43,364 nt of DNA from Promethearchaeota archaeon (GTDB taxonomy: Archaea > Asgardarchaeota > Lokiarchaeia > Sigyniarchaeales > SOKP01), in the NCBI GenBank assembly GCA_048937405.1, contig JBHLNF010000021.1, positions 1 to 43,364 of the forward strand, in the 5' to 3' direction. The position numbers were made by a program, and so were the translations under genes. Under the pieces are notes generated by a model. It worked only from the letters and a program-made list of their open reading frames with translations. It had not been told where the DNA came from and did no database searches. How positions within the stretch are numbered: the first letter of the stretch is position 1; the number at the start of each line of letters is the position of its first letter. Shown piece after piece: positions 10,653 through 39,180 of this stretch.

Positions 10653-11072
10653 TTACTTAATAATATCAGTTATGAAACAGGTTTCAATTATCTTGATTCC
10701 CTTAATTTGTGATATTTTATCCTCAATTAATGGATTGAATTTTTCTATTGAATCGATATCAACTTTCAGAAGTAACCCACAATCACCTGACAAACGCCAA
10801 ATAGTTGAAATTTCATCAATACCAATTAATTCATTCAATATCCTTTTGATATCCTTGAAATCAGGCTCAATTTTAATAGTCGCATATAATTTTTGCCTTG
10901 TATCAATTTCAAAATCAATTGTAAATTTTTTAATTATACCCTCTTCAATTAGTCTCTTTACGCGTCTCCTAACTGTTGCTTCTGTTTTTTGCACAATCTT
11001 TGAAATATCATTATAAGAGATTCTACTGTTTTCTTTAAGTAGATCTAAAATTTTTTGGTCTATTATATCCAT
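10653..11072 (-). CDS. Lrp/AsnC family transcriptional regulator
   Basis: DIIDQKILDLLKENSRISY...TVRRRVKRLIEEGII HTH plus RAM domain (LSGDCG). Confidence 0.93.
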   Translation of the reverse strand: MDIIDQKILDLLKENSRISYNDISKIVQKTEATVRRRVKRLIEEGIIKKFTIDFEIDTRQKLYATIKIEPDFKDIKRILNELIGIDEISTIWRLSGDCGLLLKVDIDSIEKFNPLIEDKISQIKGIKIIETCFITDIIK

Positions 11073-11379
11073 TTTAGACGAGTCAATAAAATTTGGGAGA
11101 TTAAATTTGAAAGAATATATTCCTCTATTTTTAGAATATGGTGTTTCATTTATTAATTCATTGTTATTAATAATGATATACTAAAGCAGAAGTGATTTAA
11201 AAGTAGGAGAAAAAGACTTATCTCATTCTTTTAAACTTAGAATTTAGAGGTATTTTAAGGTATTTGATGAAAAAATAATAAAAATTAGTTCTTAAATCAT
11301 CTATTTTTAAAAAAGGATTAATAGTTTAAATGTTTTTGAAACTAGAAGTATTTCAAAGTAAAATTACTGTTAATTTTTA

Positions 11380-12075
11380 TTATTTATTTTTCAAAATATC
11401 TTCAAATTCCATTTCTGAGATAAAACCTTTATGCATCAATATATTTCTAATATTTGTTAATACTTTAGGAAAATTGATAGCATCTATCATCTGAGCTTGC
11501 AGAGTTTGATTTCTAGATTCCAAATCTATAATTTTTTTTTCATTACTTTTAATTTCCTCCTCATATTCTGCTTTAATAGTTTCAATGTCTATAGAATTTT
11601 TACTTAATTTTTCTAGTTTTTCTTGATAATTTTTAATCTTTTCTTCAAATTCAGTTTGAGTTTTTTCTAAATTCTTGTCTTTTGTTGAAATTTTTAATTC
11701 TAAATCCTTTATTAATGATTCTAACTCTTTTTTCTTGTTATTATTCTGATTTTTCTGATTTTTTAATTCAATCTCTATGTCTTTTAGCTTAGTCTCTGAT
11801 TCTCTTAATTTAATTTCTGATTCTTTTAACTTGACTTCTAACTCTTTGATATTATTTCGACTATTTTTCAGTTCATCTTCTAATTTTTTATTGCTTGCTT
11901 TAATTTCATCAATATTTTTGTTGATAGCGATTGATTCCTCTTTAATTTTGTTCGAATCAGTTTTTATTTTTTCTAACGCTTCATTGGCTTTATTGGTTTT
12001 TTCTCTATAATTGATAAGACTTTTCTCTAAGTCATTTGTCTTCGCATGGAGATCTAGGAGAAATCTACCTTCCAC
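11380..12075 (-). CDS. Coiled-coil protein
   Basis: Continuous K/E/L heptads; start codon uncertain because the frame is open to 12132. Confidence 0.65.
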   Translation of the reverse strand: MEGRFLLDLHAKTNDLEKSLINYREKTNKANEALEKIKTDSNKIKEESIAINKNIDEIKASNKKLEDELKNSRNNIKELEVKLKESEIKLRESETKLKDIEIELKNQKNQNNNKKKELESLIKDLELKISTKDKNLEKTQTEFEEKIKNYQEKLEKLSKNSIDIETIKAEYEEEIKSNEKKIIDLESRNQTLQAQMIDAINFPKVLTNIRNILMHKGFISEMEFEDILKNK

Positions 12076-12293
12076 TTTGAAAATTTTTTCTGGTTCTTCT
12101 TCTACTTTTGGCCAATCAATACTAATTTTTTTTCACCCAATAATACAATATTATTTTATCTAAATTTATAAAACTTAAATAGAGAGAACATAAAAATTAA
12201 ATAATTTAATTATTATGATTTTGATAGTTTTATTAATAAGAATTATTAAATCTTAGTTTTTAAAAATTATATTTTTTAAAAAATATTTCTTAA

Positions 12294-12695
12294 GTGATTT
12301 CAGTGGGTAAATTATTTGAAAATTTTGCTGTTTTAGATCAAAATAACAATATCATTTTTGAGCGTGTAAATGATCAAGAGTTTTGTGCTGAATTCTTTGG
12401 ACAAGTATTAGTTGCGTTTGATGCTCTCACTAAACACATAGCAGATGGGGAGTTGTCAAATATAGAATGGGGAGACAAATTAATAACAATAAAAAAAAAG
12501 GAGGAGATCATATTTTTAGCATGCTGTGATAGTAATACTAAAGAGAGTAAAGTAAATGAAGAATTGGATGTTGTGTCTAAGAGATTTTTCGATATTTATC
12601 CCAAAGTCTTAATAGAAGATTTTGAGGGCGATAGAGCTGTGTTTTCTAATAGTGAACAGAGGTTTCTTTCAGAAATTAAATATTTAATTGATTAA
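12294..12695 (+). CDS. Longin/roadblock-like domain protein
   Basis: beta-beta-alpha-beta-beta-beta-alpha pattern ending F..Y....FEGD...F; resembles 13178..13576. Confidence 0.6.
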   Translation: MISVGKLFENFAVLDQNNNIIFERVNDQEFCAEFFGQVLVAFDALTKHIADGELSNIEWGDKLITIKKKEEIIFLACCDSNTKESKVNEELDVVSKRFFDIYPKVLIEDFEGDRAVFSNSEQRFLSEIKYLID

Positions 12696-12815
12696 ATCAT
12701 TAAAATTATACTAATTTTTTTGAAAAGACATATAAGAAAAAAGTTTTATAATAGATAAAAACAAATAGAAAATATTCAAATATAAGTAAATTCTCACATT
12801 AATAAGGGAATCATC

Positions 12816-13148
12816 ATGAGCTTTGATTGGAATTTTTATTTTAGTTTAATTTGTTCGATTGGAGGGATAATTTTTTTCATAATCAGTCTATTGATAGTCA
12901 TGAAAATAAAGGAATTATTTCCTGCAACTAAACTAATTAAAAAATGGGTGATAATACAGATATTAATTGTATTATTTCTGGGTGGATATGTTTTTAATAT
13001 CATATTTTTGGCACTTGAAATGACTACAATTACGAATATCATGGTCGCTATTGTTTATATCTTTGGGGGATTATTTGTTTTATTAATTGTTAATCTTAGC
13101 TATAAGACCTATAAAGAAATTCTTATGGGGTCTAGTGATAAAAAATAA
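12816..13148 (+). CDS. Small membrane protein (3 TM)
   Basis: Three hydrophobic segments in 110 aa. Confidence 0.7.
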   Translation: MSFDWNFYFSLICSIGGIIFFIISLLIVMKIKELFPATKLIKKWVIIQILIVLFLGGYVFNIIFLALEMTTITNIMVAIVYIFGGLFVLLIVNLSYKTYKEILMGSSDKK

Positions 13149-13177
13149 AACATAAAATGAAAATAATAAATTAAAAA

Positions 13178-13576
13178 ATGTCTCCATTACTTGATGAGCT
13201 ATGGGTTTTTTCTAAAGCAGGTGTTCCTATAGTCGATTTTTCAAAAGAAAAGAATGTCGATAAAACTTTTTTAGGATTCTTTATTTCTGCAATAAAAACT
13301 TTCAGTCAAAAAGTTTCAGGAAGAGAGTTAAAAGGATTTAATATTGGGAATAATAAATATACATGTATTCACTGTTTAGAAGATAAGCTTGTATTAGTAT
13401 GTAGATCACCTTTAGATATAAATAAGAAAAAGATTCAAAAAATTTGCTCTGTAATTGGTATAATGTTTGAAAAAATGTTTTCAATTGAAGACATTGAAAA
13501 ATGGAATGGAGATATCTCTTTTTTTGAGGACTTCCAACACAAAATAGATTTATACTTTAGGATGAGTGATATATAA
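13178..13576 (+). CDS. Longin/roadblock-like domain protein
   Basis: LWVFSKAGVPI...FISAIKTFS...WNGDISFFEDF pattern. Confidence 0.65.
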   Translation: MSPLLDELWVFSKAGVPIVDFSKEKNVDKTFLGFFISAIKTFSQKVSGRELKGFNIGNNKYTCIHCLEDKLVLVCRSPLDINKKKIQKICSVIGIMFEKMFSIEDIEKWNGDISFFEDFQHKIDLYFRMSDI

Positions 13577-13743
13577 ATCCTTCAATTAAATCCCAATTTT
13601 TTTCTTTTTAATATTTTTAAATAACTTTTTTCTGAACATTTTTGTAACAACAAAAAATTGAAATAATACTTCTTTTATATTTAGTGTATCAATTAAGAAC
13701 ATAATTTTATTTTTTTTACCTAAATTATTTTATCAAAGTAATC

Positions 13744-15084
13744 ATGGGAGATGTAAATTTTACTGATGTATTAAAGAAACTTGCAGATAGAATAGAAGAA
13801 AAAGTAACCAATTACGTTGAGCCAAAACATTTATTATTAAATCGCATTGATTTAAAAGGATTTAAAGAAGTTGTGGATCAATACATGAAAAATCGTAATC
13901 TGTGCAAAAAGACATTGGAAGTAAAAGGAACATGGCGATTAGATTTAGATTATGGGCCACAATTTGAAATCAAGCTAAAAACTGAAAGAGCAGGAGAGAT
14001 TATTGTACAAACGGATGAATTAACTTTATTTGGAGGTGGAGGTACAGCATTACATCCAATATCTTTATGTATGGCAGGATTTTGTGGGTGTTATAGTGCA
14101 GCTTTTGCAAAATGGGCAGCAATGGAGGGGATTGAATTAAATCAGTTAATGATAAGGGTTAATGGTGATTTAGATTTCTCTTCTGTGTTAAATATTGAAG
14201 AAAATGTACCTATAGTTGATCATTATCAAATTGAGTTATTTATTGAAAGTGATGCGAGTTTTGAAGAATTAAATAGAATCTCAGAAATTACTAAAAGGCG
14301 CTGCTTTTGTTATTATTGTATATCGACCTCAACTATCCCAAAAATTACTTTAAAAAATGAAGGAAAACCATCTCTTAATAATAATAATTTGAATCAAAAA
14401 GACAAAAGAATACTCAATAGAATAAATTTAGAAAGATATAGAGATACTGTTGAAATTTTCAAACAAAATCGCTCACTATGTAAAAGATTTATTGAAGCAG
14501 AAGGTCGTTGGAGATTAAATGTACAATATGGCCCTCAATTCGAAATAAAATTACCTACTGAAACCGCAGGAGAAATAACAGTTCAAACTGATGAAACCAT
14601 AATATTGGGTGGGGGGGGAACATCTTTTCATCCTGTAGCTCTTTGTATTGCTGGTTTTAGTGGTGATTTTGCTACACACTTCGCAACTTTAGCAGGTTTA
14701 TATGGTATTGAACTTAAGAAATTAGAAACAAATGCAAAAATGAATATAGATTTGACCACGGGATTTGGTATTGAAGATGGCGTCTCCATGATTGATAATT
14801 TTGAAATTGAATTGAAGGTTGAGAGTAATGCTTCAGATGAAGAACTCACAGAAATTCTCGAACTTGCGAAAAAAAGAGCTTTTTGCTATTATTGCTATTC
14901 AACACCTGTCTTTCCAGACGTGTTTGTAAGAAAGATTATTTCGAAAGAGGAAAAACAATTAACTGAAGAGCCTGGACATTTACTTGGTAAAATAGAAGAG
15001 AAAAAAATTAATTTAATACATATTGATAATCCACATAATATAAAGGTAATAATAGGGCGGGATATAAGAATAAAAGAGTTATAA
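13744..15084 (+). CDS. Tandem two-domain OsmC/Ohr-like protein
   Basis: Two homologous halves (LNRI.L...QTDE...GGGGT..HP...C.AGF...KR.FCYYC). Confidence 0.75.
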   Translation: MGDVNFTDVLKKLADRIEEKVTNYVEPKHLLLNRIDLKGFKEVVDQYMKNRNLCKKTLEVKGTWRLDLDYGPQFEIKLKTERAGEIIVQTDELTLFGGGGTALHPISLCMAGFCGCYSAAFAKWAAMEGIELNQLMIRVNGDLDFSSVLNIEENVPIVDHYQIELFIESDASFEELNRISEITKRRCFCYYCISTSTIPKITLKNEGKPSLNNNNLNQKDKRILNRINLERYRDTVEIFKQNRSLCKRFIEAEGRWRLNVQYGPQFEIKLPTETAGEITVQTDETIILGGGGTSFHPVALCIAGFSGDFATHFATLAGLYGIELKKLETNAKMNIDLTTGFGIEDGVSMIDNFEIELKVESNASDEELTEILELAKKRAFCYYCYSTPVFPDVFVRKIISKEEKQLTEEPGHLLGKIEEKKINLIHIDNPHNIKVIIGRDIRIKEL

Positions 15085-17208
15085 CGTAATCTGTTTTTTT
15101 AAATCCATTATTTTTTTTTCTAGAGTCATTGCTTTAATAGATTTTCCTAATCCCGCTAATTTAAGAATTACAAGTGAATCTTTAGCAGATTTTAAGGAAT
15201 TTTCATAATCTAACTGTAGATAATAACAACCAGCAATATTGTTATAAAAATCTGCCATTGAAGGCAAATCATTTAATGATTCTGCAATTTTTTTACCTCT
15301 ATTAAAATAATTCATAGCATTTTTAAAATCTCTTGAAAAGTAATACGCTTTTCCAATTAAATTATGATATTTCATTTCACTTGTTAAATCGTCATATTCT
15401 TGTGAGATTTTAATAGCATCTTTAAAATAACTAAGGGATTCATCGTACTTTTTTTCATTAAAGTATACCTCACCTACTTTAGATAAGTGCCAAGCTTTAC
15501 CTTCATTATTTTTTAATTTTTCATCATATTCTAAAGCTTCTTTGAATTTTTCCAAAGCAAGTGAAAAATCACCAAATTTTTGATATATTGTCCCTATATT
15601 ATTCAGGCATATCGCCAAATTTCTAATATTATTTAATCTTCTGAAAATTTTTTCTGATTGCTGGAAATATTCTAAAGATAAAGTAAGATTCTCAAGCTTA
15701 TAATGAATTGATGCAATATTGTTATATATAATTGCTTTCTTTTTTAGATCACTTAACTTTTCAGTAATTTTAATTGCTTTATCAGCGAATTGTAAAGCTT
15801 TAGAATACAACTGCATTTTCTCATAAATTTCAATAATGCTATTAATAATCCTAAGTTCTTCTGTGAGATTCCCCGTTTCTTCTACTATTTTCATTGCTTC
15901 ATGGTAGACTTGCAATGCCCTAGAAAAATTCTTTATCTTCTCATTAATTTCTCCTATATTACTTAAATAAATAATCTCTTGATCTTTATAACCTAATTCC
16001 TTAGATATGTTAAGTGCTTCTTCAAAATTTAAAATTGCTTCAGAATAGTTTCCCATTCTAAAGTATATCCAGCCAATATTATTTAAAATTAAGAGTTTAT
16101 GATCTTGATGAAGATTTTCATTAAAATATTCTAAAGCTCTTATTCCACATCTAAAAGAATCGTCAAATCTATCTAAATTAAAGTATAATATATGTGGAAT
16201 CAGATATCTTATCATCATATTAGGCAGATCAATATTTTGGCATAACCAATCTTGAAATTCTATTGAAAAGTTATTAGTGCTAAGATCATAATCAAAATCA
16301 CTGATTGTTCTTAAAAAATGCATAATATTAGCGTTTATTCTAAATAATTCGACATTGGGATTCTGATTCTTGATCTGAAATAGAATCTTATCTAAATCAT
16401 CCCTATTTCTTGAAGATTTATTATCATTTTTTTTTATCTCAATAATATTGATATTTCCTTGATCATTCGAAATATGATTCAACCATAGAATTCTTTTTAA
16501 TTTATGGTATTTCTTCAAGATGGGAATTATATCAAAATCATTTTTTCCAGAATAACCTATTAAAATCAAATTAGCATTATTCAACAATTTATTCAGTAAA
16601 ACTCCTTTATACGGTTCAACAAAAAATAAATCAAATTCAGATTTATAAGAACCGATTTTTTTAATCATTGAAAGAAAATATTCTTTAGTACTTTTGCCTG
16701 TTAATATATTTTTCGTTGATCCGTGAATTTTAAATAAAAACTTTTTCCCATCATTTAAATAATCTAAAATATTTCTAAATTTTTTATAATCTTTTTCAGT
16801 TATAATTGAAAAGATATGCTCTTTCCCACCATTAGATTGAACTAAGGCGTGCTCGATTAAAGAATCAAAATTTGATGTAATAACAATGTGTCCTATATTT
16901 ATCATTTCTGCTAGAAAAAAATGAATAATATTGGGTCTATTACATTGTTCAAAATATTCAATTATTCTCAAATCATTATCAAATTGACTTCTTAAAATTT
17001 CTATTAGAGTTTCAAACTTTAAACCCTCTAACTGAGATATACTTTCAATTTCCGATTTTGCACATGTAAATTTGATTAGTTCTTCTATTATTTCGTTGGT
17101 ACTTGGAAGATTAGAAGGTGAATTAATAGAACATCCTGCTCCGGCAACGAAAATATATTTTTGATTGTCCTTTAACAAATTTTCTAAGTTTAAATTTACT
17201 TCATGCAT
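15079..17208 (-). CDS. SIR2-like (SIR2_2) domain plus TPR array protein
   Basis: FVAGAGCS, ITSNFD, KIHGS, LIGYSG..DFD; C-terminal NNIG/NNIA TPRs; paralog of 31348..33636. Confidence 0.85.
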   Translation of the reverse strand: MHEVNLNLENLLKDNQKYIFVAGAGCSINSPSNLPSTNEIIEELIKFTCAKSEIESISQLEGLKFETLIEILRSQFDNDLRIIEYFEQCNRPNIIHFFLAEMINIGHIVITSNFDSLIEHALVQSNGGKEHIFSIITEKDYKKFRNILDYLNDGKKFLFKIHGSTKNILTGKSTKEYFLSMIKKIGSYKSEFDLFFVEPYKGVLLNKLLNNANLILIGYSGKNDFDIIPILKKYHKLKRILWLNHISNDQGNINIIEIKKNDNKSSRNRDDLDKILFQIKNQNPNVELFRINANIMHFLRTISDFDYDLSTNNFSIEFQDWLCQNIDLPNMMIRYLIPHILYFNLDRFDDSFRCGIRALEYFNENLHQDHKLLILNNIGWIYFRMGNYSEAILNFEEALNISKELGYKDQEIIYLSNIGEINEKIKNFSRALQVYHEAMKIVEETGNLTEELRIINSIIEIYEKMQLYSKALQFADKAIKITEKLSDLKKKAIIYNNIASIHYKLENLTLSLEYFQQSEKIFRRLNNIRNLAICLNNIGTIYQKFGDFSLALEKFKEALEYDEKLKNNEGKAWHLSKVGEVYFNEKKYDESLSYFKDAIKISQEYDDLTSEMKYHNLIGKAYYFSRDFKNAMNYFNRGKKIAESLNDLPSMADFYNNIAGCYYLQLDYENSLKSAKDSLVILKLAGLGKSIKAMTLEKKIMDLKKQITL

Positions 17209-17380
17209 AATACTGAATACTTTGTGTTAAATTTCTGGTGAAAAACATACCTAAATAAAATCTGAAAATCTAAAAAACAATATCCTATATATCTTTTACA
17301 TAAATAAAAATTTTAACATAAGAAAATAATAAAATTTTTTCATTAAATAAAATTTGATACAATTTTATTGATATTTAATT

Positions 17381-17410
17381 GAACTACCATACCCTAAAGA
17401 GTATGGATTC
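17381..17410. mobile_element. Possible degenerate IS200/IS605-type terminal hairpin
   Basis: GAACTA-CCATAC-CCTAAAGA-GTATGG-ATTC resembles the AACTACC...CTAAAG...GG end hairpin; no transposase nearby. Confidence 0.3.
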
Positions 17411-17721
17411 GTAATCCCTATGATTCAATGAGAATCGTAGACAGTAAAGGATAGTTCTCTACCCTTACATCATCAATATGATGATCATAATTATATTTCT
17501 TAAGAATATCTTATCTAGTTTCTAAACTAAGGATTCATAGTCAGTATTGAATATTTAACAAATGAATGATCGAAATTAGTATTTATATGATCTAATTTTG
17601 AAAAAGGATTAATAGTTTGAATCTTTTTCTTACATAGAATAATTTTAAATTATAACTACTAGGATTTTTATAATCCTGAATTTTATTTTAAAAATAGAGC
17701 AAAATAATTATTGAGAAAAAA

Positions 17722-19203
17722 ATGAATGCTATTCAATATGATTTAGCTATTATTGGTGGAGGACCAGGGGGTTATCATGCAGCTATTAGAGCGGCTCAAT
17801 ATGGAGCAAAAGTCGCATTAATTGAAAAAGATAAGTTAGGTGGTACCTGTCTAAATTGGGGATGTATCCCTACAAAAGCTTTATATGCTTCTGCGCATTT
17901 AGTAGAAAAAATAAAAGATGCCCATGAATTTGGAATAGAAATTTCTGATTATCATTTAAATTTTGCTAAAGCTGTTGAGAGAAAAAATCAAGTGGTACAA
18001 GAATTGGTTGGGGGAATTGAGCAATTAGAGAAGGCATGGAAAAACGATGTTTATAAGGGATATGGCAAAATTTTAGGGGGAAATACTAATGAAGGATTTG
18101 AAGTTTCGGTTGAAGGTGAAAATAATGTGGTATTAAAAGCAAGAAGAGTAATCATCGCGACAGGTTCCTCACCGGCTATAATTCCAGCGTTTAATATTGA
18201 TCACGAAAAAATTTTGACAAGTGATGATATTTTACATCCTGCGTTTAAAACTGTACCTAAAAGACTATTGATCATTGGAGCAGGTGTTATCGGGTGTGAA
18301 TTTGCGAATATTTTTACTAGATTTGGGAGCAAAGTAATTATACTTGAATATCTTCCCTCTGCAATTGCTACAGAAGAACCTATGATAGTCAAAGAATTAA
18401 TGAAAAAATTTAATGAATTAGGAATTGAGCTACATACGTCACAAAATGTGTTATCTATAGAAAATACAAAGTCTGGAGTAAAAGCTACTACATGTGATGC
18501 CTCCGTTCCACGAGATCAAACTGAATCTGCTGAAAAGTCTGTATTTGAAGCTGATTTGTGTTTAGTTTCTATTGGTCGTGCAAAAATATCAAAAGATCTT
18601 GGTTTGGAAAATCTTGGTATAGAAACTGATCGTGGTGCTATAAAAGTCAATAAAGATACCCTAGAGACTGCTATGAAAGGAATCTATGCAATTGGAGATG
18701 TCACAGGCGGGCTTATGCTTGCTCATGTAGCCAGCTATGAAGGTGATATCGCAGTTGCAAATGCATTAGCCAATATTGGAAGTTTTCCTGTTAGCGAAAT
18801 GAAACCAGATTATAAAGTAGTACCAGCAACAATTTTCACCTCTCCAAATATAGGTTCTGTAGGCTATAGAAGAAAAGTTGCAAAAGATATGGGAATGGAT
18901 GTCTTAATGGGCCAATTTCCTTATCAATCACTTGGTAAAGCTAAATGTATGGGCGAAGAAACAGGCTTCCTTGTAGTTTTGGCTGATAAAGAGACACATA
19001 AAATCGTTGGGGCATCTTGTATTGGCGCTGAAGCCCCAGAATTAGTAGCTGAAATAGCATTGGCAATGCAACATGGCTTAACAGTTCATGATGTTTCTGA
19101 GACAATTCATTCACACCCTACAATATCAGAAATGGTATTAGAGGGATGTGAAGCAACAGTTGGTATGGCTATCCATAAAAAAGGGAGACCTATTCACCAT
19201 TAA
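17722..19203 (+). CDS. lpdA: Dihydrolipoamide dehydrogenase
   Basis: GGGPGGY, GGTCLNWGCIPTK redox disulfide, GAGVIGCE, HSHPTISE. Confidence 0.96.
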   Translation: MNAIQYDLAIIGGGPGGYHAAIRAAQYGAKVALIEKDKLGGTCLNWGCIPTKALYASAHLVEKIKDAHEFGIEISDYHLNFAKAVERKNQVVQELVGGIEQLEKAWKNDVYKGYGKILGGNTNEGFEVSVEGENNVVLKARRVIIATGSSPAIIPAFNIDHEKILTSDDILHPAFKTVPKRLLIIGAGVIGCEFANIFTRFGSKVIILEYLPSAIATEEPMIVKELMKKFNELGIELHTSQNVLSIENTKSGVKATTCDASVPRDQTESAEKSVFEADLCLVSIGRAKISKDLGLENLGIETDRGAIKVNKDTLETAMKGIYAIGDVTGGLMLAHVASYEGDIAVANALANIGSFPVSEMKPDYKVVPATIFTSPNIGSVGYRRKVAKDMGMDVLMGQFPYQSLGKAKCMGEETGFLVVLADKETHKIVGASCIGAEAPELVAEIALAMQHGLTVHDVSETIHSHPTISEMVLEGCEATVGMAIHKKGRPIHH

Positions 19204-21082
19204 TTAATAGAATATTCCTTTTTTTCTTATTTGTAGATTTATTAGAAGATTCAATCAAAAATTTAGCTTGTTCCAGCCCTAAATTATTTATCCTATAAAT
19301 TCTTGAAGTAGCGCCATATATTAGCTTACCTATTCTGATTTTTTCCGATTCTTTATATAATTCTATTAAACCTTTCTTAATTAATTTATGAAGATATTTA
19401 TTAACAGCACTAACAGATAATTTAATATATGAAACTAATTCATTTGAGGTGAATTGATTGCTATTTTTTTGTTTAGTTATTTCATAAATTGCTTTAATGT
19501 ACTTTTTCCATCCTTCTCCATAACTAATTTGTTTTTTAAGAGGATCCCCTATTATTTCATTTTTAAATTTAAAATTTTTAATATTATCAGTTATGTTTTT
19601 ATATCCTGATTTTACATTTTTTTTATAATCTTCATATTTATTTTCAAAAATTTTATCAATATGTTTAATGAATCTGAAATGAGTGATTATTCTGTGACAA
19701 TTAGAACAAAGAGCGATACAATCCTCCTCTCTTAGCAATTTCCTTATTTTTTGTATATTATATTTTTTAATATCTGTCCATTTAGATTTTTGCTCATCCA
19801 TATTTTCATTTCTATGATGGAAATCGAAGCTAGGCAAGTTGTTTCTAACGGTAATTTCACCACACCCTATGCATTTTCCATTATACATTTTCTCAATAAT
19901 ATATCTTTTTTTAAGCCATCTCTTAATCTGTGTTTTAAAACTGCTAATCTTTGATGGTGATTTATTTTTTAAATCTGGAAAAGTCTTCAAATAATAATTT
20001 ATAATCTTATCAATTTCGATAGGGGTGTTCTTAAAAATATCATTTTTTAGAATAAGATCCTCAAATTTTTTAAATACTACTGCTTGATTTTTTGAATGAC
20101 AGTTAGCACATAGTAATGTAAGATTCTCCCTTTTTATTATTTCAATAATACGATTTAAATTTATGTTAAATATATCTCCCAAATTTACTTTTTTAGTAGT
20201 TTTATCTTTATGATGAAATTTTAAAGCACTAAGTTTTGAGATATCTGTCATACATTTTTTACATTTAATTTTGGATTTTAGACCTAATAATCTTAGTATA
20301 ATTCTAATCTTTTTTTTATAATGTCTAATTGCTCCCTCTTCTAATCTACATTTTTTACATATACTTTCTAGAAGCTTGTTCTCTTTTTTATTAAATTCTA
20401 CATAGTCTTTAATTTCATGACATTGACCACATTCTTTTTTCTTTCCATCATCATATAAGGATTGAAAACTTAATTTATTCATATTAAATTCATCACTATG
20501 TTCATTCAAATAATCTATTAATTCAGAAATGAAACTTAAGAGAGTTCTTTGAGAAAGCCCTAGAGTGTTATTGTTTTTGCTCAATTTGGATACAAAATTT
20601 TTAATATTGACTATATTACCAGCTTTCTTTTGCCTTAGGTTTTCACTATTTAAGTCATAAATTAGCTTTATCAGATCTATTAAATAGAGTTTCAGTGCTA
20701 AAATTTGATTTTTATCAAACAATAATTTATATAAATAATTTAATTCATGATTGGGAATTTTTTTAACCCAATTAAGCTTACTTTGATTACTCTTTAGACT
20801 ACTAATCAGAAATTTAACAAAATTTCGGAGTTGTAAAGGTTTAAATTCATCCAAATTATTATAGATAGCTAAACTAATTATTAACCTTGTTTTTTTTGGA
20901 AATTTATTTATTCTTTTAATATTTCTGAGTCTTAGAGCCTCAGATATTTCTTTCTTATAATTATTATTTGTAGAGAGAAAATTTTTTGACATGCCTCTTT
21001 TAACTCCTTGGTCATAATCCCAACCCCATTTAAAATAACTTTGAGTATGTCGTCTAAAAACATCTCCTAATAAAGAGATCAA
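19190..21082 (-). CDS. Tandem HNH endonuclease with Zn-ribbon and C-terminal winged HTH
   Basis: CGQC..CKKC; KCKKC...FHH...LLCANCH; KCIGC...DFHH...ALCSNCHR; FTSNEL...SAVNKYLHKLIKKGLI. Confidence 0.75.
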   Translation of the reverse strand: MISLLGDVFRRHTQSYFKWGWDYDQGVKRGMSKNFLSTNNNYKKEISEALRLRNIKRINKFPKKTRLIISLAIYNNLDEFKPLQLRNFVKFLISSLKSNQSKLNWVKKIPNHELNYLYKLLFDKNQILALKLYLIDLIKLIYDLNSENLRQKKAGNIVNIKNFVSKLSKNNNTLGLSQRTLLSFISELIDYLNEHSDEFNMNKLSFQSLYDDGKKKECGQCHEIKDYVEFNKKENKLLESICKKCRLEEGAIRHYKKKIRIILRLLGLKSKIKCKKCMTDISKLSALKFHHKDKTTKKVNLGDIFNINLNRIIEIIKRENLTLLCANCHSKNQAVVFKKFEDLILKNDIFKNTPIEIDKIINYYLKTFPDLKNKSPSKISSFKTQIKRWLKKRYIIEKMYNGKCIGCGEITVRNNLPSFDFHHRNENMDEQKSKWTDIKKYNIQKIRKLLREEDCIALCSNCHRIITHFRFIKHIDKIFENKYEDYKKNVKSGYKNITDNIKNFKFKNEIIGDPLKKQISYGEGWKKYIKAIYEITKQKNSNQFTSNELVSYIKLSVSAVNKYLHKLIKKGLIELYKESEKIRIGKLIYGATSRIYRINNLGLEQAKFLIESSNKSTNKKKRNILLINGE

Positions 21083-21207
21083 TTCGTCTGTTGGGAGTTT
21101 GCCTAATATCGATATAAGTTGTTTCTTATTTTCCTCATCAAACTTAGTTTTTTTAATAATTTTATTTATTATTGATTTTTTTTTTACAACTCAAAATTGT
21201 ATTTTTT

Positions 21208-21522
21208 TTAAAAATTCTTCTTTAAATGCTCCTTCCAATTCATAGCAACTTCTAGTTCAGGAATTATTTCTAAAGAAATTTTTTCAAGTTTTATGAGATT
21301 TCTGATTTTTTGAGCAATTTGGTTTTCAGTAGGGTTGTGTTTTTGTAATAAAACGATTAATTTTCTACTTAAATTCATTAAGTGTCTATATTTTTTGATT
21401 TTTTCAATTAAATCTTTTTTAATTTTGTCAGAAATTTCTATTTCATCAACTTCAATTATCCACTTTTCCAACAAGATTTCCCAATCTTCCTTAGGTTTAT
21501 TCTTTTCTTCACTTAAAATCAT
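21208..21522 (-). CDS. Small helical hypothetical protein inside the HNH element
   Basis: 104-aa K/E-rich ORF; its ATG lies at the junction with the lpdA duplicate. Confidence 0.55.
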   Translation of the reverse strand: MILSEEKNKPKEDWEILLEKWIIEVDEIEISDKIKKDLIEKIKKYRHLMNLSRKLIVLLQKHNPTENQIAQKIRNLIKLEKISLEIIPELEVAMNWKEHLKKNF

Positions 21523-21718
21523 TGGTGCATCTTGTATTGGCGCCGAAGCACCCGAATTAATTTCTGAAATTGCTTTAGGAATGCAACATGGTTTAACTGT
21601 TCATGATATCGCAGAAACTATCCATAGTCATCCAACGATATCTGAAATGGTGTTGGAAGGTTCTGAATCTGTCGTAGGTAAAGCAATCCATAAGAAAGGA
21701 CGTCCTATTCACCATTAA
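21514..21718 (+). pseudogene. lpdA: Displaced lpdA 3' fragment (last 67 codons)
   Basis: KIIGASCIGAEAPELISEIALGMQHG...HSHPTISE...KKGRPIHH, 57/67 aa identical to the LpdA C-terminus; no proper start. Confidence 0.9.
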
Positions 21719-22097
21719 TTTAACTAAAATATTTTTTCTTTCATATATTATTTTTTTTTTCTATAAAGTGATTTTAATGAAATAAAATGAACCGTAAGTA
21801 GGGGGTTCCTATTCATCATCTCCCTCATTTTTAAGTATTCTTTTTGATCAAAGTTTAATATTAAATGATTGATTTCGACATATTCGGTCGATTTCCGTTA
21901 TTAATATTATGGTAACTTAACATAACATCCCTTCGATTTTTTATATATGACTCTTTTCAAGAATTTATTGTTACTAATTTAGGCTTGAGACGATCACTTT
22001 CGCAAAGCTATTGTTTGCTATACGACAGGTAAATTATCGAGAATGATCACATTTATATATGATCATTCATATATTATTATTGAGGTGAGTAAGTAAA

Positions 22098-22364
22098 ATG
22101 GATAGTATAAGATCGAAAAAAAAGGCACTCAAGAATTTTGAGAATATAAAGGACGCCGTAAAAGGTTTATATGAAATTTTAGAGCTTTCCCTGAGTGAAC
22201 ATGATTTTTATTATGAAGCAGGTAAAGATAACATTACTGCAATTTATAAGAATCTCATAGAATTATTGTTAAATGAATATGGGCTTCGTCAACTTTTAAA
22301 GAAGATCCAGAACTCAGAAGTAGATTTGAACATCGTGCTTAATGAGTATTTAGCGAATGCCTAA
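22098..22364 (+). CDS. Hypothetical helical protein, 88 aa
   Basis: Strong SD TGAGGTGA at 22081-22088; TATA-like TTTATATA at 22052-22059. Confidence 0.75.
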   Translation: MDSIRSKKKALKNFENIKDAVKGLYEILELSLSEHDFYYEAGKDNITAIYKNLIELLLNEYGLRQLLKKIQNSEVDLNIVLNEYLANA

Positions 22365-22430
22365 TAAATTTTCTTTACTGATTTCTTTTTTAGTAAGTTT
22401 TTGAAATGAGCCAGTTGTATTACTATAATA

Positions 22431-22507
22431 TCAGTTCCCTGAATTCGTCCGTTGAATACTCACCTCACCCATTGTCGCAAATCTTCAAGGAGATATCGGG
22501 GAACTGA
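22431..22507 (+). ncRNA. Candidate hairpin ncRNA and integration target
   Basis: TCAGTTCCCTGA pairs with TCGGGGAACTGA (12 bp, one G-U on the + strand); inner TCC/GGA and TTGAA/TTCAA stems; 27-nt loop; T-tracts follow. Confidence 0.55.
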
Positions 22508-22646
22508 CCTTTTTCCTTTTTCATATAAAGGAGAGAAATAGAGAAGTGAAAATAGGAAATAAAAAATTTAGGATCGTTATCAAGCTTATTTAACAAATGA
22601 TTGACCGAGATCTTTAATATTTATAGATTTAGACCTTCCATTTTTT
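22455..22646. repeat. Repeat A copy 1 (55-bp att-like core plus ~137-bp element left end)
   Basis: Direct repeat of 34090-34282; the core recurs at 39042-39096. Confidence 0.93.
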
Positions 22647-34068: not shown

Positions 34069-34282
34069 AATTGCTTGAAACAACCCCTCAATACTCACCT
34101 CACCCATTGTCGTAAATTTTCAAGGAGATATCGGGGAACTGACCTTTTTCTTTTTTCACATAAAGGAGAGAAATAGAAAAGTGAAAATAGGAACTAAAAA
34201 ATTTAAGTTCGTTATCAAGCTTATTTAACGAATGATTGACCGAGATCTGTAATTTTTATAGATTTAGACCTTCCATTTTTTT
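34069..34282. repeat. Repeat A copy 2 (21-bp right-end motif, core, left end)
   Basis: AATTGCTTGAAACAACCCCTC, then the core at 34090-34144, then the flank shared with copy 1. Confidence 0.93.
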
Positions 34283-39020: not shown

Positions 39021-39096
39021 AATTGCCTGAAGCTGCCCCTCAATACTCACCTCACCCATTGTCGTAAATTTTCAAGGAGATATCGGGAAACTGACC
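39021..39096. repeat. Repeat A copy 3 (right-end motif and core only)
   Basis: AATTGCCTGAAGCTGCCCCTC, then the core at 39042-39096; downstream flank is unique. Confidence 0.93.
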
Positions 39097-39180
39097 CTTT
39101 ACTTTTTTATTTTTTTTTACTTTTTTGCTGAAAACTAAGTCCAAGATTTCAATGAAAAACAATAATAGTGTAAAAAAAAT

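Follow-up and report, generated by a model that had tools for sequence, protein, structure and literature searches.

At icd of E. coli, phage 21 and e14 supply a replacement 3′ end that has diverged synonymously and leave the displaced pseudo-end downstream; the tyrosine integrase responsible is encoded by the element. Paquin et al. reportedly described, in 1994, a mobile endonuclease open reading frame (ORF) at atp6 of Allomyces macrogynus that leaves a C-terminal duplication. In the mitochondria of Endoconidiophora resinifera, C-terminal duplicates of cob and atp6 lie downstream of these genes with (often degenerate) homing endonuclease ORFs between (PMC6279837). In Torulaspora and Lachancea yeasts, the WHO elements found at FBA1, the aldolase gene, combine a nuclease gene with a 3′ end that confers resistance (Coughlan et al. 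2020, eLife, PMC7282813). According to the model for these elements, the older gene end, shoved downstream, serves as the right-hand homology, and repeated homing yields clusters in which the newest element lies closest to the full-length gene; the 5′ part of the target has a history at odds with that of the 3′ part, paralogues have relocated elsewhere, and cleavage has been shown experimentally (PMC7282813). Free-standing homing endonucleases, including SegB, MobE, and F-CphI, are also known from T4-like and other phages (PMC2330249, PMC2790892, PMC6083498). Here, we describe a locus on a 43,364-nt stretch of DNA (hereafter the window; contig JBHLNF010000021.1 of the Promethearchaeota archaeon assembly GCA_048937405.1) in which lpdA, the gene for an lpdA-like flavoprotein disulfide reductase, has downstream of it a convergent gene with tandem HNH-like motifs and then a second copy of the lpdA 3′ end. 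The arrangement is probably the work of a homing-type selfish element that consists of a replacement lpdA 3′ end and the convergent gene for a tandem-HNH-like, winged-helix protein. The window is contig 11 (C11) of the host genome G000 (4.47 Mb), and labels of the form G0xx denote the genomes of the relatives with which it was compared. The named relatives of the window proteins are Promethearchaeia (Asgard archaea), and Asgard archaea are the closest known relatives of eukaryotes.

The locus comprises the following features, in order along the window.

17722..19203, + strand: intact gene for an lpdA-like flavoprotein disulfide reductase of 493 aa, with Pfam matches to Pyr_redox_2 (2e-63) and Pyr_redox_dim (7e-31).
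18940..19225, + strand: replacement lpdA end, apparently carried in by the element and reaching from approximately codon 407 through the stop codon and about 22 nt more; identity to relatives drops from about nt 1201 of the gene, and the junction motif is changed.
19190..21082, − strand: C-terminal 630 codons of a large tandem-HNH and winged-helix gene, 58% identical to residues 588-1200 of the G012 protein, with invariant motif columns.
21208..21522, − strand: 104-aa ORF, a remnant of the middle of the same large gene in another frame, with 54% identity over 50 aa to the 1203-aa protein of G012.
21514..21740, + strand: displaced native lpdA end (codons 427-493, stop codon, and native 3′ flank) with an eroded 5′ side, recognized by its identity to the tails of relatives and by its orf88 context.
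21783..21819, + strand: trace of an even older lpdA 3′ end (37 nt), with 70% identity to the final 37 nt of the tail.
22098..22364, + strand: conserved 88-aa gene (orf88), the landmark of the region natively downstream of lpdA; it adjoins lpdA in another 17 genomes of the genus, with 75-98% amino acid identity.

The last 67 codons of lpdA are present twice (18999-19203 and 21514-21718) with 77% nucleotide identity; 46 of 201 nt and 10 of 67 residues distinguish the two tails, which contain no stops and both keep the sequence HSHPTISE. A preliminary description of this DNA had reported the duplicated tail with its 10 amino acid differences, its lack of stops, and HPTISE in both copies, as well as the abrupt start of the homology at TAAAATC (18999 and 21514), and alignment and translation bore out both observations. 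The homology ends about 22 nt beyond the two stop codons, such that the upstream-copy stretch duplicated within the window is 18999-19225, and the direct repeat 18995-19225/21510-21740 aligns without gaps at 76% identity. The free-standing downstream copy still scores as Pyr_redox_dim. The lpdA gene itself is a continuous ORF of 493 codons, colinear with its orthologues, and the insert begins after its stop codon. Homing of an intein or intron was ruled out because the lpdA ORF is uninterrupted and the insert is located 3′ of the stop codon; the preliminary description had likewise proposed homing without an intron or intein.

Judged from nucleotide alignments, the lpdA gene of the window is chimeric, with a native 5′ part joined to a 3′ end of foreign origin. 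Compared to G018, the lpdA body is 85% identical at the nucleotide level, and the last 201 nt, the proximal tail, are 77% identical. The downstream tail has its nearest neighbors among the native ends of relatives (G018, 91.0%; G067, 90.0%; G041, 89.6%) and is 96.6% identical to the displaced tail of G044. The best match of the upstream tail among the sampled tails is 82%, except for the carriers of the same insert, G044 (88% nucleotide identity) and G053 (96% amino acid identity), and this tail has Met483 in common with the element-borne tail of G012. In the window, orf88 begins 380 nt past the downstream tail. By the orf88 context and the nearest-neighbor identities, the distal tail is the displaced native end and the proximal tail is foreign, the assignment that had been proposed from the window alone. 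A comparison with element-free loci, set beforehand, identified six relatives (G060, G041, G009, G016, G045, and G042) in which the lpdA stop codon is followed by orf88 within 280-390 nt, and the downstream tail of the window lies in the matching context. By these alignments, then, DNA was inserted at the 3′ end of lpdA with the foreign tail proximal and the native tail distal, shifted 2.5 kb downstream. G001 had been a candidate for a further empty site and was dropped, as its lpdA is followed by 260 nt of residual HNH gene.

Extra lpdA tails were found in G044, G012, G003 (two), G057, G068, G020, and G060. The closest relative, G044 (∼90% identity across the locus), carries the insert of the window in a longer form: a 1338-codon gene without interruptions runs convergently to lpdA, and the displaced tail and orf88 follow in that order. 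The displaced tails of G012, G003 (both), and G068 (where the tail sits at a contig start) begin at codons 409-411, that is, within ∼6 nt of codon 410, with unrelated DNA upstream of each, and those of the window, G044, and G057 have lost sequence at the 5′ side through erosion, down to codons 427-435. These positions place the original insertion junction at about codons 409-411 in separate occurrences that are not necessarily independent events; the insertion point at codon 427 that was first assigned to the window reflects the erosion of its tail. A unit of tail and HNH gene adjoins lpdA in three diverged lineages, namely G000/G044, G012, and, as remnants, G001 and G003. G057 retains the G012-type end plus ∼30 nt of flank, its cargo is entirely different, and the HNH gene is absent. 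The order in G003 is body, tail 1, tail 2, and tail 3, with a common 3′ flank of ∼100 nt behind tails 2 and 3; this flank runs into an HNH-gene remnant behind tail 3 and likewise behind the tail of G001. By analogy, the G003 arrangement resembles a WHO cluster. An older relic of the lpdA end (37-40 nt) is located ∼290 nt upstream of orf88 in the window, in G044, in G005 (where TAA is kept), and even in the otherwise "empty" G041.

The paired tails have also undergone gene conversion with each other. The proximal tail of G044 holds a 78-nt tract that is identical to its own distal tail at a place where the proximal tail of the window differs, the proximal tail of G057 is almost fully converted, and the two tails of G012 are identical over ∼90 nt. 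The distal tail of G057 shows decay, with HSHP changed to HSYP and one Leu changed to Pro. At the junction itself, the motif GEEEGFIMV has become GEETGFLVV in the window. All four HNH-bearing alleles possess a changed motif (GEETGFLV in G000 and G053, GEETGFLA in G044, and GKAEEIGFLMI in G012), and the approximately 27 HNH-free alleles retain GEEEGFIM(V/I). This pattern is a correlation only, and it fits a recognition site located at the junction; the changed junction may be what confers resistance to cleavage.

The 630-codon ORF between the tails is convergent with lpdA, overlaps the lpdA end by 14 nt, and starts with TTG. Its product contains two CxxC...FHH...CxNCH modules and a C-terminal winged helix. 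Intact orthologues comprise 1203 aa in G012 and 1338 aa in G044; the whole 630-aa product aligns to residues 588-1200 of the G012 protein at 58% and to the G044 orthologue at 89%, and ∼2.1-2.5 kb of the G044 gene, its N-terminal half, is without a counterpart in the window. The N-terminal half of the G012 protein is made up of acidic tandem repeats and Lys/Glu-rich helices. The 104-aa ORF matches the middle part of the G012 protein in another frame than the 630-codon ORF; the window copy is therefore a truncated and frameshifted form of one large gene, probably a decaying relic. The layout and motifs given in the preliminary description therefore stand, and two of its readings are revised: the 104-aa ORF is a fragment of the same gene rather than a separate gene, and what was taken for an intact element is a relic of a gene that in G012 and G044 spans 1203-1338 codons. 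The HNH protein family forms 196 clusters at E<1e-30 with highly variable N-terminal extensions, and its named relatives are confined to Promethearchaeia.

Several lines of evidence bear on the identity of this protein. The conserved module spans ∼400 residues, and the Cys, His, and Asn residues of CxxC, FHH, and CxNCH are invariant or nearly so in both modules. In AF2 models (pLDDT 84 and 91), FHH closes a strand and CxNCH opens a helix; at the level of motifs, this predicted placement is that of beta-beta-alpha-metal nucleases. The whole 630-aa protein gave no Pfam HNH match at E<=0.1; its part P0002:262-480 matched PF01844 with 19.8 bits (cut-off 21.4, E 9e-4), and when 36 family members were compared to Pfam, PF01844 was matched by 14 (best E 5e-5), HNH_2 by four, and His_Me_b4a2 by two. 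The winged helix gave weak Pfam matches and Foldseek matches to the MarR, PadR, and TFE winged helices with E values of 0.004-0.03, which are under the significance line of the tool. Foldseek retrieved the winged helix only when provided with a 436-residue model; for a 219-residue model of the two modules it returned non-significant rows only (e.g., the HNH domain of Nme Cas9 at E ∼5), and the VIA-align list for this model was filled by the helical linker, with no significant HNH match. We do not count these results against an HNH fold. Sequence searches of the PDB and NCBIfam yielded winged-helix regulators only. The motifs together with the sub-threshold Pfam matches point to an HNH protein, putatively an active, allele-specific nuclease. 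Pfam and NCBIfam searches detected no integrase or transposase domain in the ORFs between the lpdA copies of the window, in agreement with the preliminary description, and a tRNA scan of the window detected no tRNA.

A homing cycle of the following kind could have given rise to the locus. At about codon 410 (GAAGAAGAAGGTTTTATTATGGT), the HNH protein would cut an lpdA allele that is free of the element, and repair from an element-bearing copy would follow, with the left end pairing with the lpdA body and the right end pairing with the displaced tail 3′ of the nuclease gene. The recipient would thereby gain a differently spelled, presumably uncuttable gene end along with the nuclease gene; its own end would be pushed downstream, and lpdA would stay whole. 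Donor DNA would have to reach the recipient cell, and homing in an archaeon, with no obvious diploid stage, would need polyploidy or cell-to-cell DNA transfer.

In a protein-level screen of HNH paralogue loci with 9-kb flanks, the same layout was found at two other genes, a result in favor of the preliminary description, which had asked for a check of HNH homologues next to further duplicated gene ends. In G000 (C17:70700-73500), a 179-aa dUTPase gene (dut) is followed by a convergent, intact gene for a 529-aa tandem-HNH paralogue and, immediately ahead of the next native gene, by a displaced dut end. The corresponding site is empty in 11 relatives, where dut, a 78-aa gene (orf78), and an acs-like gene are adjacent and the HNH gene is absent. 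The undecayed part of the displaced dut fragment is nearer to the consensus of relatives than is the functional dut tail, and the dut of G000:C17 is only 66-73% identical to all other dut genes of the genus, including that of G044. In G001 (C162), a 481-aa acetyl-CoA-synthetase-like (acs-like) gene has a 141-aa copy of its end 6.4 kb downstream (72% identity over the last 72 aa), with the gene for a 933-aa HNH paralogue located immediately before the displaced end. Two of the three HNH-family loci in G000 are situated between a gene and its displaced end. The gene-to-displaced-end intervals make up ∼0.5% of the G000 genome, a rough estimate obtained by summing the listed distances. DNA self-comparison at 30 paralogue loci with 1.5-kb flanks revealed no flanking repeats.

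We compared the divergence between G000 and G044 across the locus. The lpdA body shows a dS of 0.38, the HNH gene a dS of 0.12 with a dN/dS of 0.41, the displaced tail a dS of 0.17 with a dN of 0, and orf88 a dS of 0.105. On these values, the host gene looks older than the element and its right flank, and the displaced tail seems to be under constraint. Both patterns could stem from a recent spread in which the right flank was co-converted or from renewal through recombination with native, functional alleles.

Other routes to a displaced gene end were weighed against homing. Tandem duplication in place, in which the lpdA end and the DNA downstream of it were copied and then diverged, has precedents in G000 (C13:236-241 kb and C2:45-48 kb), where a cargo gene was duplicated together with the tail. 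At lpdA, by contrast, only the tail is duplicated, the two tails differ by 23%, the distal tail is 91% identical to tails of other species, and relatives possess empty sites; we reject this explanation as highly improbable. Site-specific integration by a recombinase that acted in trans or has since been lost, with the lpdA 3′ end forming part of the attachment site and the HNH gene being mere cargo, would yield a similar product, namely a whole gene that ends in foreign sequence and, downstream, the native end that was displaced. It would also accommodate the constant left boundary of the displaced tails, the size and varied cargo of the inserts (23.5 kb in G012 and 10.9 kb in G057, the latter carrying a SIR2-TPR gene), the displaced gene ends elsewhere that lack an HNH gene, and the integrase-less islands with a repeated core (seen by BLAST) just downstream in the window. 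Against it, the ORFs of the inserts in the window, G012, G057, and G003 encode no integrase domain (serine recombinases were not searched for as a family). A search for PF00589 (tyrosine recombinase) in five genomes (G000, G012, G057, G044, and G003) found none on the lpdA contigs; the matches elsewhere were a single Xer-like gene in each of G000, G012, G057, and G044 and an extra copy on C28 of G000, with none in G003. The shared core in the window is no longer than 17 identical nt, and the HNH family is present in the same layout at three target genes (lpdA, dut, and acs-like). We regard such integration as quite unlikely.

Uptake of DNA from a related strain would require no dedicated enzyme. 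Homologous recombination anchored in lpdA would be combined with a chance illegitimate joint inside the lpdA of the recipient, and the HNH gene would be a bystander that happened to neighbor the lpdA of the donor. The lpdA-orf88 spacer is indeed hypervariable across the genus, many of its inserts duplicate no tail, many assemblies break right past lpdA, and nuclease-free displaced ends occur at uvrA, dinB, and a radical-SAM gene. Random joints, however, would not cluster so closely (∼6 nt) around codon 410 in several tails whose upstream DNA is unrelated, and uptake leaves unexplained both the presence of the HNH family in such intervals at lpdA, dut, and acs-like and the confinement of the junction motif change to HNH-bearing alleles. 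This explanation, too, appears unlikely. Integration and uptake are kept alive as alternatives to homing because nuclease-free displaced ends exist and because the inserts of G012 and G057 carry much other DNA.

Several observations weigh against homing by the HNH element. One is the occurrence of displaced gene ends without an HNH gene or remnant at uvrA, dinB, and the radical-SAM gene of G000 and at lpdA of G057. At the three G000 loci, the displaced C-terminal copies are found 1.2-4.3 kb downstream (C7:922094-929305, C25:178788-183532, and C19:36408-38464, respectively), the cargo comprises ferredoxin, methyltransferase, MarR, OYE, and flavin reductase genes with no nuclease, and a hidden Markov model search for HNH remnants detected none at these loci or in the G057 insert. 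Because such ends exist, either another process can give the same layout or nuclease genes can be quickly lost. The protein-level screen for C-terminal duplicates in the 9-kb flanks of HNH paralogue loci found no displaced tail at ∼20 of 23 loci; these tail-less loci may represent old insertions, transposed copies, or domesticated genes. In G012, the HNH gene and the displaced tail are 20 kb apart, separated by Cas6, Csm6, and other genes. The differences between the displaced tails of G000 and G044 are all synonymous, which is unexpected for a dead fragment unless recombination refreshes it. Finally, the orthologues are unusually large compared to homing endonucleases and possess acidic tandem repeats at the N terminus, and no Pfam HNH match attains the curated cut-off.

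The surroundings of the locus offered further observations. The 23.5-kb interval from lpdA to the displaced end in G012 (C59:9550-33040) contains the intact 1203-aa HNH gene, Cas6, a Csm6 CARF-HEPN protein, a DUF285-repeat protein, a C39-peptidase-like protein, and uncharacterized proteins of 718 and 1289 aa. Upstream of lpdA in the window, a 6.7-kb block (10841-17547) that is absent from G044 contains a 709-aa ORF (SIR2-like and TPR by eye) and ORFs of 110 and 132 aa; the G057 lpdA insert has ORFs of similar size (a 947-aa SIR2-TPR protein, 111 aa, and 132 aa), the likeness being one of size. Downstream, a sequence of ∼68 nt occurs three times in the window (22414-22522, 34090-34157, and 39042-39108) and flanks two blocks that are absent or altered in G044. 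Assemblies that break between a few bases and ∼3 kb past the lpdA stop codon are those of G043, G018, G055, G063, G011, G014, G053, and G054, which suggests strain-level heterogeneity at this position. The tandem segmental duplications of a gene end plus a neighboring gene in G000 involve paralogous membrane proteins of 294 and 298 aa (C13:236183-241348) and two nitronate-monooxygenase-like genes (C2:45388-48500), and they represent a different origin of duplicated gene ends.

A broader proposal can be put forward tentatively. The HNH and winged-helix family might constitute active, diversified WHO-like homing elements of Asgard archaea that repeatedly rewrite housekeeping genes at their 3′ ends (lpdA, dut, acs-like, and probably others) and that possibly seed the adjoining variable, defence-rich islands; we hold this to be possible, with the balance of our judgment leaning against it. 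If true, chromosomal DNA would be frequently exchanged between cells in these populations and subjected to homologous repair, and the family would correspond, in prokaryotes, to the elements that gave rise by domestication to the HO endonuclease of yeast. The present case would add a new, large nuclease family along with evidence that chromosomal gene flow and gene conversion recur in Asgard archaea, and it would explain the hypervariable islands and assembly breaks beside conserved genes in these metagenome-assembled genomes. The protein and its candidate target of ∼30 bp provide a concrete basis for biochemistry.

Gene-end-replacing homing was encountered in the searched literature for yeast nuclei, fungal mitochondria, and phages, and no report was found for archaeal chromosomes. 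The proposed archaeal element is most like WHO in its unit of nuclease gene and gene end, the downstream displacement of the older end, the clusters of decaying nuclease genes and fragments, the discordant 5′ and 3′ histories of the target, and the paralogues elsewhere, and the models for the two coincide. The proteins differ, however, as WHO is LAGLIDADG/intein-like with zinc fingers and the archaeal element has tandem HNH-like modules with a winged helix. WHO homes between alleles in a diploid at meiosis, whereas the archaeon would need polyploidy or DNA transfer, and cleavage was demonstrated experimentally for WHO, whereas the archaeal protein is known here from its sequence. The mobile ORFs of fungal mitochondria likewise lie between a host gene and a partial C-terminal duplicate downstream; they are of the GIY-YIG or LAGLIDADG type, organellar, and often fused in frame to the host gene, in contrast to the separate, convergent archaeal gene. 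The phage enzymes likewise home without an intron or intein, co-convert the markers beside them, and have catalytic motifs of the HNH or Endo VII type, but they are small (150-300 aa), spread in co-infection, and mostly lie between genes rather than replacing gene ends. The insertions of phage 21 and e14 are alike in product and differ in that a tyrosine integrase is present in the element, with none in the archaeal inserts. Compared to all of these systems, the locus described here is new in its host, an archaeal (Asgard) chromosome, and in its tandem-HNH and winged-helix family with members up to 1338 aa that carry acidic repeats, and it also differs in having several housekeeping targets.

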